A stretch of DNA of 64,000 bases from Eledone cirrhosa (Eukaryota), in assembly GCA_964016885.1 (NCBI GenBank), contig OZ024741.1, forward strand, positions 278,008,001 through 278,072,000, given 5' to 3'. The notes below the pieces were generated by a model that was not told the origin of the DNA, made no database searches, and saw only the letters and a list, made by a program, of their open reading frames with translations. The position numbers and the translations under genes are program-made. Each line of letters begins with the position of its first letter. The stretch's first letter is position 1. Of the stretch, positions 32,293-43,640 are shown one piece after another.

Positions 32293-32468
32293 TATATATA
32301 TATATATATATATGTATATATATATATGTATATAGATATATGTATATATATATGTGTATATATATATATATATATATGTATATATAACGAAGGAAATGTG
32401 GTAAGGAACCAGGTGGACCATAACGCACCAAAGTACTCAATACTTAGGGTAGTAGAGTGGGTAATAGA

Positions 32469-32574
32469 AACAAGTAAGACCCCGACGGCTAGGCTCAAGC
32501 CGTTTCCAGAATTAGCCGTTTCCAGAATTAGCCGTCGAAACGGCTTGAGCTCAGCCGTCGGGGTCTTACTTGTT
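32469..32574. repeat. Hairpin made of two inverted hammerhead 3' halves (Penelope-like end)
   Basis: Arms 32469-32506 and 32537-32574 are near-perfect reverse complements. Each reads GAAA-cggct...agccg-TC-ggggtc. Confidence 0.65.
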
Positions 32575-32709
32575 CCTATATGTATATATATATATATGTG
32601 TATATATATATATATGTGTATATATATATATATGTGTATATATATATATATATGTGTATATATATATATATATATATATATATATATATATATATATATA
32701 TATATATAT

Positions 32710-33305
32710 CACGTGATGCGCATGAAAGTCGATAGCTGTATAACAAAGTGCAGGGCAATAAAGATAGACGGTAGTCACGGAATAGGCAGACCTAGAAAAA
32801 CCTGGGAGGAGCTGATAAACTCCGACATCACACACTTACACCTCTCCAAGACAATGTCACTGGACCGAGACCTTTGGCGGTACTCAGTAACAGAGAAGAC
32901 CCGCCTTACCTAAATATATAGTAAAACCTACTCCAACCAGTAGGCATCTCTAACAAAATACACCACGTCCCACCACCACCACCCCCACCCCATCCACACC
33001 ACCCCGTTCTATGTAAAGTTATGTTGGTGCCGCGCCATAGGCCGAAACAAATGAGATCGTGTAGGTGTCACGACAAAAAAACACACAGTCCACGCTGTAA
33101 TGTGGCCGTGTAGGCAACACGGTAAAAACCTCCCAAACCCACACTGTAAATGTGGTTGGTGTTAGGAAGGGCATCCAACTGTAGAAAACCTGCCAGACAG
33201 TCCTATGCGAGCAAGACAATCACTCTTGCCTCAAGTGGGACTACCCCCATCCAAACCCATGCAAGCGTGGAACACGGACGTTAAACGTTGATGATGATGA
33301 TGATA
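32710..33305 (+). mobile_element. Young RTE LINE, short 5'-truncated copy, subfamily A (ORF ends TRLT*)
   Basis: HVMRMKVDS...TRLT*, followed by the 3' UTR and (GAT)n. Confidence 0.95.
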
Positions 33306-33800
33306 TATGTATATATATATATGTATATATATATATATATATGTATATATATATATATGTATATATATATGTATATATATATATATGTATATATATATAT
33401 ATATGTATATATATATATATGTATATATATATATGTATATATATATATATGTATATATATATATATGTATATATATATATATGTATATATATATATATGT
33501 ATATATATGTATATATATGTATATGTATATATATGTATATATATATATATATGTATATATATATATATGTATATATATATATATATATATATATGTATGT
33601 ATATATATATATATGTATATATATATATATGTATATATATATATATATATATATATATATATATGTATATATATATATATATATGTATATATATATATAT
33701 ATATATATATATATATACGTTATTCCGGGTTGAATCGGAGGTAACCACAGTAACTAAGGTACTCAATACATAGCAGAGTATAACAGTTTTAATATAGATG

Positions 33801-33851
33801 AGATTCTACAGGACTAGAACTGTTTCATTCATTTGAAATCATCAGGAATCT
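33801..33851 (-). ncRNA. Type I hammerhead ribozyme motif (inverted duplicate of 42915-42965)
   Basis: Exact reverse complement of the motif at 42915. Confidence 0.75.
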
Positions 33852-41200: not shown

Positions 41201-41750
41201 AAGATAGACGGTAGTCACGGAATAGGCAGACCTAGAAAAACCTGGGACGAGCTGATAAACTCCGACATCACACACTTACACCTCTCCAAGACAATGTCAC
41301 TGGACCGAGACCTTTGGCGGTACTCAGTAACAGAGAAGACCCGCCTTACCTAAATATATAGTAAAACCTACTCCAGCCAGTAGGCATCTCTAACAAAATA
41401 CACCCCGTCCCACCACCACCACCACCCGATCCACACCACCCCGTTCTATGTAAAGTTATGTTGGTGCCGCGCCATCGAGGCCGAAACAAATGAGATCGTG
41501 TAGGTGTCACGACAAAAAAACACACAGTCCACGCTGTAATGTGGCCGTGTAGGCAACACGGTAAAAACCTCCCAGACCCACACTGTAAATGTGGTTGGTG
41601 TTAGGAAGGGCATCCAACTGTAGAAAACCTGCCAGACAGTCCTATGCGAGCAAGACAATCACTCTTGCCTCAAGTGGGACTACCCCCGTCCAAACCCATG
41701 CAAGCGTGGAACACGGACGTTAAACGTTGATGATGATGATGATGATGATA
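38250..41750 (+). mobile_element. Young RTE LINE, near full length (5' UTR apparently missing), subfamily A
   Basis: Intact ORF, ~370-bp 3' UTR and (GAT)n tail, inserted in a complex TA/TG microsatellite. Confidence 0.96.
38258..41353 (+). CDS. RTE LINE ORF: APE endonuclease, reverse transcriptase and PHD-type Zn finger, ~1031 aa, uninterrupted
   Basis: [82 protein letters not shown]. The upstream 33 codons in the ORF track are microsatellite. Confidence 0.96.
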
Positions 41751-42914
41751 TATATATATATATATATATGTATATATATATATATATGTGTGTGTGTGTG
41801 TGCATGTGTGTGTGTGTATGTATATATGTGTATATATGTATATATGTATGTATATATATGTATATGTGTATATGTATGTGTGTATATATATATATGTATA
41901 CGTATGTGTGTGTATATATGTATGTGTATGTATGTATGTGTGTATATATATATATATATATATATATATGTATGTATATGTATGTATATATATATATATA
42001 TATATGTGTGTATATATATATATGTATGTATATATATATATATATGTTTGTGTATGTATATATGTCTATGTGTATTTGTGTGTATATACATGTATATTCG
42101 TGTTTGTATGTATGCGTGTGAGTGTATTTATTTGTGTATATATATATGTGCGTGTGTGTGTATGTATGTGTATGTGTGTGTGTGTATCTGTATATATATA
42201 TGTGTGTGTGTATATATGTGTATATATTTTTATATATATATGTATATATATATATATATATACATGTATTATATATGTATGTGTGTATGTATGTCTGTAT
42301 GTACGTGTGTGTACATGAATATATATTTATATATTTTTATATATATGTGTGTGTGTTTTTATGTGTGTATATGTGTTTGCGTGTGTGTTTATGGTTGCGC
42401 GTAAGTGTGTGAGTGAGTATGTGTGTTTTTTGTTTTTTTGTTTTTTTGTGAATGTGTCTGTTGATTTTTGGCATATAGTTGATTAGTTTAAGAGAAGTTC
42501 GAAGATAATAGTAAGATATGCACTCAGTATTTTGAATCTGTCTGCAGAATTCTGTAGACCTTTGTCACTTAGTAGAACCTTAATGACTTTAGCTTTTAAA
42601 GAATCTCCCTTTTCTTTAGTTCTATTGACTATGACTGACCCCCCACTGATTTTATAGACATCTGTTAGCTTAAGAGAAACTTATTGACAAGGAATGGTAG
42701 GCCATCCGGAACCTGTTTATAGAATTCTGTCTGCCCTTGTTACTCTAAAAACATAAATAAATAAAAATAAAAATAAAAATAAACTATAGCTTTGTAGAAT
42801 TAGCTTTTAATGAATTCCCTTTTCTATCAACCAATGACCTGCACCCATCCCACTCCCCACCCTCTCCTACCACTTGTAGAGACCTATAAATACCATATTT
42901 ATTTTTTGATACCC

Positions 42915-42965
42915 AGATTCCTGATGATTTCAAATGAATGAAACAGTTCTAGTCCTGTAGAATCT
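42915..42965 (+). ncRNA. Type I hammerhead ribozyme motif in a Penelope-like terminal segment
   Basis: agattc-CTGATGA-[tttc aaat gaat]-GAAA-cag ttctagtc ctg-TA-gaatct. Confidence 0.75.
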
Positions 42966-43104
42966 CATCTATATTAAAACTATATATATATATATATATA
43001 TGTATATATATATATATATGTATATATATATATATATATATATTAGAAAGTGAGGTTTTTTTTACGAAATGAAAAATAACCGAGGTGTCCTACACGAGTG
43101 GAAG

Positions 43105-43640
43105 TATAAAGAAAAAGAGATGAAATCGAAAATGCAACTGAAGTCTTATTTTTTTTTAAAATATATATATTTATTTGGTTCCTTTACCGGTTTCGCAGTT
43201 CTTCTGCTTTTCAAAAGGTGAGTTGAGATGGAGGGTCTGTGGTTTTTCTCACATCCGAAGATCCACAAATGTAAAATAATCAACGATGCCTGTAAACAAT
43301 CCACCTCAGCCTGCGTGAACACACAATACCCCACAGACCTTAAATTAAGACCAATATATATGTATATATATATATATATATGTATATATATATGTATATA
43401 TATATACGTATATATATATGTATATATATATATATATGTATATATATATATATGTATATATATATGTATATATGTATATATATATATATATATGTGAGAA
43501 AAACCACAGACCCTCCATCTCAACTCACCTTTTGAAAAGCAGAAGAACTGCGAAACCGGTAAAGGAACCAAATAAATATATATATTTTTAAAAAAAATAA
43601 GACTTCAGTTGCATTTTCGATTTCATCTCTTTTTCTTTAT
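43105..43640. repeat. ~150-bp inverted repeat pair (43105-43254 and 43492-43640), Penelope-like end
   Basis: The arms are near-exact reverse complements, separated by ~100 bp of unique sequence plus (TA)nTG. Confidence 0.9.
43528..43565 (+). ncRNA. Minimal hammerhead with U3-A8 core variant
   Basis: cctt-TTGAAAA-gcag aagaa ctgc-GAAA-ccgg-TA-aagg. A mirror copy lies at 43181-43218 (-). Confidence 0.65.

Follow-up and report, generated by a model that had tools for sequence, protein, structure and literature searches.

We report that a cluster of hammerhead ribozyme motifs at positions 32388-43640 of a 64,000-nt stretch of the Eledone cirrhosa genome (GenBank assembly GCA_964016885.1, contig OZ024741.1, positions 278,008,001 to 278,072,000, forward strand; the whole stretch is called the window below, and coordinates count from its first letter) can be read as a nest of truncated ends of Penelope-like elements (PLEs) in (TA)n, in which inverted pairs would result from both ends of the cut target priming their own complementary DNA (cDNA). 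To this reading we assign a probability of roughly 0.58. Each of the five modules, here named A (32388), B (33718/42981), C (35706), D (37117) and E (43044), is almost certainly the 5′-truncated, hammerhead-bearing end of a high-copy autonomous PLE family. Among head-to-head pairs of such ends, exactly one arm carries the 3′ tail in 164 of 165 resolved cases, and every pair in the window has its tail on a single arm.

Hammerhead motifs and parent elements of the five families

The coordinates of all five motifs listed in an earlier note on this DNA were confirmed by a descriptor scan of 32388-43640 and a check of the sequence. Complete type-I hammerhead motifs occur in four modules, seven copies in total: B at 33801-33851(-) and 42915-42965(+), C at 35804-35863(-) and 35875-35934(+), D at 37313-37467(-) with a stem II of 116 nt, and E at 43181-43218(-) and 43528-43565(+), with a U3-A8 core and a stem I of 4 bp. 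Having the conserved core, stems I-III and the UH site of the type, modules B, C, D and E are candidate type-I hammerheads; stem II of B is minimal, and stem I substitutions in B-like variants preserve pairing. Module A consists, as the note had it, of two 3′ halves at 32469-32574; CUGANGA is absent there, so that this copy, which has no 5′ core, is not a whole ribozyme.

The motifs are more frequent than in shuffled sequence. Under a strict descriptor, in which stem I must span 5 bp or more and the 43181/43528 pair is lost, 32388-43640 gave 5 matches; 200 local shuffles averaged 0.015 and never exceeded 1. Only the D motif at 37313 folds better than shuffles (z -6.28), the free-energy folds of the other motifs being no better than shuffles (z +0.44 to -1.65), and Rfam at gathering thresholds returned no match within the window.

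The modules proved to be multi-copy, with at least 1905 first-look candidates for A, 2369 for B, 1626 for C, 669 for D and 1027 for E. These counts are lower bounds, because one 33-mer of A alone matches exactly at 19,510 places genome-wide. All 40 scored copies of family C were 100% identical. Longer stretches recovered ORF-coding parents, so that modules of all five families are linked to PLE open reading frames (ORFs): locus L368 for A, L153 and L159 for B, L142 and L143 for C, L144 for D and L278-L281 for E, the last with 775-aa ORFs. A search with the endonuclease region of E yielded 21,910 candidates, and module E was present in 29 of 30 examined loci, the query's own included. L147 was rejected as an E parent, being a chimera with a Hydra-type ORF piece. 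The expectation that several PLE or retrozyme families were at work stands for the different PLE families but not for retrozymes; non-LTR retrozyme membership was rejected, as 32388-43640 holds no tandem array of short, ORF-less units with complete hammerheads. "ORF-less cassettes" likewise describes the usual product, but module E carries 99 bp of its own reverse transcriptase (RT) ORF. Inverted partial terminal copies are present, as predicted.

Judged by motifs, families A-D are probably Hydra-type and family E is probably Neptune-type. In Pfam, the E protein matches GIY-YIG above the cut-off and RVT_1 just under it (E 1.3e-6), and the 775-aa ORFs have DKG, a CX2-5CxxC linker and CCHH. The ORFs of A-D contain YRDD and YIG/YVG motifs, match the GIY-YIG Pfam family weakly and match the E protein over the RT in a profile comparison. 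They have RWK (C) or RWR (A, B and D), DKT in place of DKG in all four, a CxCX5C linker, CxxC and CxH near the C terminus, and no CCHH; the third linker cysteine is missing from the A copy L261. Counting against this assignment, the Hydra-type ORFs fall below every Pfam cut-off, and their profile match to the E protein has only 80% probability (E 1.4e-5); the clade names rest on motifs. Membership in Naiad/Chlamys was ruled out, as the endonuclease is C-terminal and hammerhead motifs are present.

Partial tandems that form pseudo-long terminal repeats (pseudo-LTRs) with a hammerhead were found in L153 (B), L142 and L143 (C), L144 (D) and L368 (A), and the E locus L281 contains two units and resembles a local duplicate. 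An inverted 5′-truncated copy at the 5′ end, with an optional tail at one end, is a trait of endonuclease-containing (EN+) PLEs that was observed here. The units measure 4788 bp in B, 4284 bp in C, 7385 bp in D and ~3.5 kb in A and are not of the short (<3 kb) kind typical of Hydra elements, a trait that PMC8557442 gives as descriptive rather than diagnostic. Searches of the PDB gave no match, a protein homolog search returned 123 relatives with no named one among the 120 listed, and no RNA was listed among the sequencing runs carrying the sequence. The family D ORF (L144:1660-4152) has a ~100-aa N/K-rich insert between the RT thumb and the linker, which resembles N-rich inserts described in rotifer PLEs.

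Several variant cores were noticed. The full family A motif, with a 56-nt stem II and a U3-A8 core, occurs in L211, L332 and L368, and the family E core is U3-A8 in all 116 motif hits. Across all loci examined, one A subfamily (L248-L277) pairs C3 with A8 in the cores of 29 of its 38 motif hits. This combination breaks the 3-8 pair, loss of which abolishes cleavage in PMC11167929, and cleavage is therefore predicted to be weak; the subfamily was amplified despite this mismatch. A short-gap pattern for a complete A ribozyme gave 19 matches, all chimeric or loop-derived, and was discarded. In L170, L173, L176 and L178, 3′ halves of A are fused directly to hammerhead 5′ halves of other families, which suggests template jumps between PLE RNAs. 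Family C has a second, degenerate hammerhead in its 3′ untranslated region (UTR; L142:1701-1788 and 5987-6074), with UG at the cleavage position.

Anatomy of the nest and its (TA)n surroundings

Unique 16-mer anchors map 33718-36850 (-) to the entire 2.9-kb 3′UTR of family B and ~37478-42981 (+) to an inverted, shorter, tail-less B copy. By this colinearity, the 33801/42915 pair is a single 9.3-kb fold-back insertion of B (33718-42981). The features of the cluster are as follows.

32388-32506 (-): family A (Hydra-type PLE), tailed arm, hammerhead 3′ half plus a tail of ~76-79 nt (~32388-32467); parent ORF in L368
32521-32579 (+): family A, inverted tail-less arm, hammerhead 3′ half
32710-33306 (+): RTE-like long interspersed element (LINE), 3′ fragment ending in (GAT)n, located between A and B; self-BLAST match to 41150-41750
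33718-36850 (-): family B (Hydra-type PLE), tailed arm, whole 3′UTR from ORF stop to tail; 16-mer anchors colinear with the L153 copy
35706-35881 (-): family C (Hydra-type PLE), tailed arm, hammerhead 35804-35863; parent ORFs in L142 and L143
35857-35970 (+): family C, inverted tail-less arm, hammerhead 35875-35934
37117-37477 (-): family D (Hydra-type PLE), single tailed end, hammerhead 37313-37467; parent ORF in L144
37478-38249 (+): family B, inverted arm, first part; start approximate, anchors 37710 to 38216
38250-41749 (+): RTE-like LINE inserted in B's inverted arm; apurinic/apyrimidinic (AP) endonuclease, RT and PHD finger, 1064-aa frame 38159-41353
41750-42981 (+): family B, inverted arm, second part, hammerhead 42915-42965, tail-less end
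43044-43255 (-): family E (Neptune-type PLE), tailed arm, hammerhead 43181-43218, U3-A8 core
43251-43349 (+): 99 bp of RT ORF from family E itself, fused to the tailed arm; identified by 98% identity to L279 and by translation
43492-43641 (+): family E, inverted tail-less arm, hammerhead 43528-43565

The LINE at 38250-41749 is one that we take to be RTE-like, Pfam supplying its domains only. The tailed arm of B, with its hammerhead at 33801-33851 and its tail at 33718-33785, is mostly (TA/TG/CA)n. Family C is inserted within the B 3′UTR, between UTR positions 962 and 1046, and the single end of D sits at the junction of B's two arms. Dinucleotide repeats make up 68% of the 3′UTR in B, 55% in C, 57% in D, 23% in E and 5% in A, and 3125 of the 4305 dinucleotide-repeat bases of the region (73%) lie within the arms of B. 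The modules are indeed embedded in (TA)n, as had been noted, but most of that repeat belongs to one element. Similarly, (TA)n targeting is borne out, whereas no pre-existing host site was hit five times, since C, D and the LINE are nested in B's microsatellite-rich UTR copy. The three insertion sites of A, B and E adjoin, and the remainder of the cluster is nesting.

For comparison, 80 evenly spaced 10-kb stretches of the 3.0-Gb genome served as a systematic sample. The strict descriptor had 69 matches in it, against 1-4 in five shuffles; three tandem arrays contribute 22 of the 69. The density of hammerhead motifs is ~84 per Mb, or ~250,000 genome-wide if extrapolated. Five families occurred in 1 and four families in 3 of the 80 stretches; the density of the cluster is uncommon, not unique, and the cluster is a dense but ordinary nest. 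Its share of dinucleotide repeat is 38%, compared with a sample mean of 14.8%. When flanks were checked, (TA)4 was found within 24 nt after 65 of 76 element 3′ ends (A, B, C and E pooled, in the sample) against a background of 7.6%; family D flanks were also examined, and (TA)n insertion, as expected of Hydra elements, was scored as present. That the UTRs of B, C and D are the main source of microsatellites genome-wide found no support, as the sample, at 14.8% dinucleotide repeat, contained only diverged (70-87%) relatives of their ends; their microsatellite contribution is a local observation.

One tail per inverted pair and its possible origin

Abutting pairs of A, B, C and E, from which same-family arms more than 60 nt apart were left out, combined a tailed and a tail-less arm in 140 of 141 cases. 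All 7 clean pairs of family D were mixed; L063 was left out because its partner is a tail-only piece. The rule held for 62 of 63 pairs in which the query did not force the outcome and for 22 of 22 pairs in the systematic sample. Solo ends in the sample were tailed in 22 and tail-less in 12 instances, a ratio at which independent choice would give 46% mixed pairs, so that 22 of 22 has a p of 3e-8. A further set comprised 17 regions of contig C1 in which exact matches on opposite strands lie next to each other; they were picked by eye, with the tail ignored, from the first 100 matches listed. Its resolved pairs were mixed in 17 of 17 cases, L373 staying unresolved as its 3′ end lies beyond the fetched stretch. 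Tails measure about 61-79 nt in A, B, C and E and 125 nt in D. A strand bias, suggested by the five tailed arms of the cluster all lying on the minus strand, was dismissed: tails within the same sample stretch were on the same strand 16 times and on opposite strands 15 times, and the agreement in the cluster was treated as chance.

Perfect palindromes are a known class of sequencing and assembly artefact, and no listed contig spans the window's own stretches. That the inverted pairs are such fold-back artefacts is nevertheless very improbable. Their arms end exactly at element boundaries, differ in their flanks and carry private mutations; the two arms of B bear different later insertions; contigs of runs X1 and X2 show family E joined across opposite strands; and in run X6, which belongs to another study, both arms of A were present in a single contig.

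The two arms of a pair need not be equally long. Among the 140 mixed pairs, the tail-less arm is longer by >30 nt in 8 and the tailed arm in 14, while in the further set the longer arm was tail-less in 7 pairs and tailed in 7, with 2 equal and 1 complex, at differences of up to >3 kb. Many pair junctions overlap by 1-7 nt.

We propose that the PLE endonuclease would cut (TA)n and that a protein dimer, bound at the repeat-ORF junction, would extend both strands. Each cut end would prime one cDNA, one at an outer and the other at an inner reverse-transcription start site, on the same RNA or source. Synthesis of both cDNAs would end prematurely, where the ribozyme is folded or where the 5′ end of the RNA is reached, and end-joining at short complementary tracts would unite them head to head; a solo copy, tailed or tail-less, would remain when one arm is lost. 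Two-ended priming would explain the single tail, the free arm length and both kinds of solo end, and we hold this step to be somewhat more probable than its absence. The ribozymes would be passengers, because in a fold-back copy each would base-pair with its antisense arm, and half the core is missing from A copies. The biochemistry in PMC11167929 is compatible: a purified anole PLE protein cuts AT-rich DNA and extends both strands in vitro, two start sites delimit the tail, a dimer was modelled, and the hammerhead requires the protein and is dispensable for insertion.

A less likely but possible alternative keeps the same elements and lets the inverted arm arise by self-priming or fold-back of the cDNA or of antisense RNA, after which the endonuclease removes one tail and central deletions make the arms unequal. 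Self-priming on an antisense template is proposed in PMC3846280, and the tail is attributed to endonuclease resolution in PMC8557442. This alternative agrees with the near-perfect palindromes in 118 of 140 pairs, with the junction overlaps and with the markers shared between arms. It is at odds with the geometry of the copies, since a cDNA begun at the inner site has no tail to copy and one begun at the outer site cannot yield a longer second arm, yet among clearly unequal pairs the tail-less arm is the longer one in 8 of 22 in the first set and in 7 of 14 in the further set. Furthermore, the starts of five short tailed arms all fall in 3291-3302 of one reference, whereas those of their partners range from 158 to 2320, a clustering that random deletion would not predict. 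A tail-loop intermediate was rejected as well, since none of 7 tail-to-tail configurations had the tail as its spacer.

Of 130 arm starts in loci fetched for other families, 122 fall inside the ribozyme or no more than 43 nt ahead of its core (A, 64/68 in the stem II 3′ strand; B, 33/36; C, 7/8; D, 5/5; E, 13/13). For A, 1,296 exact matches extend upstream compared with 19,510 for the 3′ half, in agreement with truncation at the ribozyme. The same disparity would be expected if the short cassettes, above all those of family A, were units like short interspersed elements (SINEs) or retrozymes, copied as finished fold-backs with PLE proteins acting in trans. We regard this as unlikely, even though 49 of 54 sample A arms begin in the stem II 3′ strand, short copies show at least five marker haplotypes, and retrozymes are derived from PLE repeats in bioRxiv 10.64898/2026.07.22.740005. 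Against it, loops vary between copies, long ORF-linked copies were seen for 2 of 5 haplotypes, and A-E do not form tandem arrays of short units, module A of the window lacking a complete core.

Several observations speak against two-ended priming followed by truncation. In 118 of the 140 mixed pairs the arms start within 30 nt of each other, as simple fold-back gives; symmetric pairs would need shared stop sites or joining at local palindromes, and for them fold-back is at least as good an explanation. Unequal arms may stem from a deletion that struck the middle of a long palindrome afterwards, and L193, one of the 8 pairs with a longer tail-less arm (by 32 nt), is probably an alignment effect. 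Within a pair, the two arms match at 205 of 216 subfamily marker cells, compared with 0.60 across insertions, as priming on the same source would have it, but fold-back or gene conversion accounts for this equally well. Some of the 130 arm starts may mark loss of likeness to a single reference copy in older subfamilies. The sole exception to the rule, L281, has two tail-less ends and looks like a local duplicate of a tailed unit. Finally, the use of each of the two start sites exactly once has no explanation in the data.

Relation to known elements and significance

Earlier papers already report hammerheads at PLE termini, partial copies in inverted orientation and targeting of (TA)n; what this analysis contributes is a quantified pair rule and a mechanism open to test. 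Inverted copies, a tail often at one end, a (TA)n bias and a Hydra clade with one octopus family are described in PMC8557442, where the formation of tandem and inverted PLE insertions is called undefined. An optional tail on one inverted repeat is reported in PMC3846280, 31 recently active PLE families in Octopus vulgaris in PMC13282606, and insertion of PLEs in or beside other PLEs in PMC6765202. Our literature search found neither a strict one-tail rule nor two-ended priming stated for PLEs; subscription works such as older Penelope reviews lay outside it and may state them.

Families A-D share with the EN+ PLEs of the Hydra clade (Craig et al. 2021, PMC8557442) the RW(K/R), DKT, CxCX5C, CxxC and CxH motifs, the absence of CCHH, a canonical hammerhead and (TA)n insertion, and the family C protein resembles, judged by eye, that of Hydra-1_Obim. 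Published members are generally <3 kb (Hydra-1_Obim has 2507 bp without pseudo-LTR) with tails of 30-40 nt, whereas the units of A-D reach ~3.5, 4.8, 4.3 and 7.4 kb and tails here have 60-125 nt; further differences are the partial tandems and, in B, C and D, 3′UTRs of 55-68% dinucleotide repeat. Family E shares GxKF, DKG, a CX4CxxC linker, the CCHH of GIY-YIG and (TA)n insertion with the Neptune clade, in which it was set by motifs, its separation from Nematis not being tree-based; its U3-A8 covariation is published for Schistosoma PLEs (PMC4209133). Like the minimal PLE hammerheads (Cervera and de la Pena 2014, PMC4209133), the motifs are of type I with a short palindromic stem III; those are mostly single and tied to truncated PLEs but also form opposite-strand pairs 100-700 bp apart, as here. 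Unlike them, D has a stem II hairpin of 116 nt, A is mostly half a ribozyme, and one A subfamily is C3-A8. Non-LTR retrozymes are likewise ORF-less hammerhead repeats related to PLE termini, whereas A-E have ORF-coding parents and no short-unit tandem arrays.

Other repeats occur around the cluster. At 49297-57050, outside the cluster, a 474-bp unit forms a tandem array of 15.6 copies (49297-56674) with a minus-strand hammerhead motif per unit and one inverted copy at 56852-56896; by its structure it may be a non-LTR retrozyme. Relatives in L292, L306 and L351 show compensatory stem I changes. A further minus-strand hammerhead-like motif with a 61-nt stem II region lies at 58062-58151. Tandem hammerhead arrays with periods near 310, 556 and 467 bp were seen in L287, L319 and L317, and the 800-kb sample contained 24 motif types. 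About 10 truncated RTE-like LINE copies are spread over 24312-48558, several by (TA)n and some mutually inverted, among them a palindromic pair at 47770-48558. The window also has a second, frame-broken LINE with endonuclease and RT domains (6694-10696), a Tc1/mariner transposase fragment (28986-29600, -) and a 52-bp minisatellite of ~73 copies (59570-63372).

In L1 twin priming, both target ends prime cDNA and an inversion results, the two cDNAs covering different parts of the RNA. Here, both cDNAs would cover the same 3′ end, offset by the tail.

It is an even bet, in our view, that a dimer extends both cut ends from one start site each, so that tail, inversion and ORF-less cassettes arise in a single step that has left ~250,000 motifs, and that families with microsatellite UTRs carry their own target and seed nests. 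The pair rule, which matters more than a cluster that is ordinary for this genome, would together with the free arm length tie the inversion to the two start sites seen in vitro (PMC11167929). For biochemistry, the genome is a source of ORFs of both the Hydra and the Neptune type that are young and intact, and of natural variants of the ribozyme; its long microsatellite UTRs will mislead repeat annotation.

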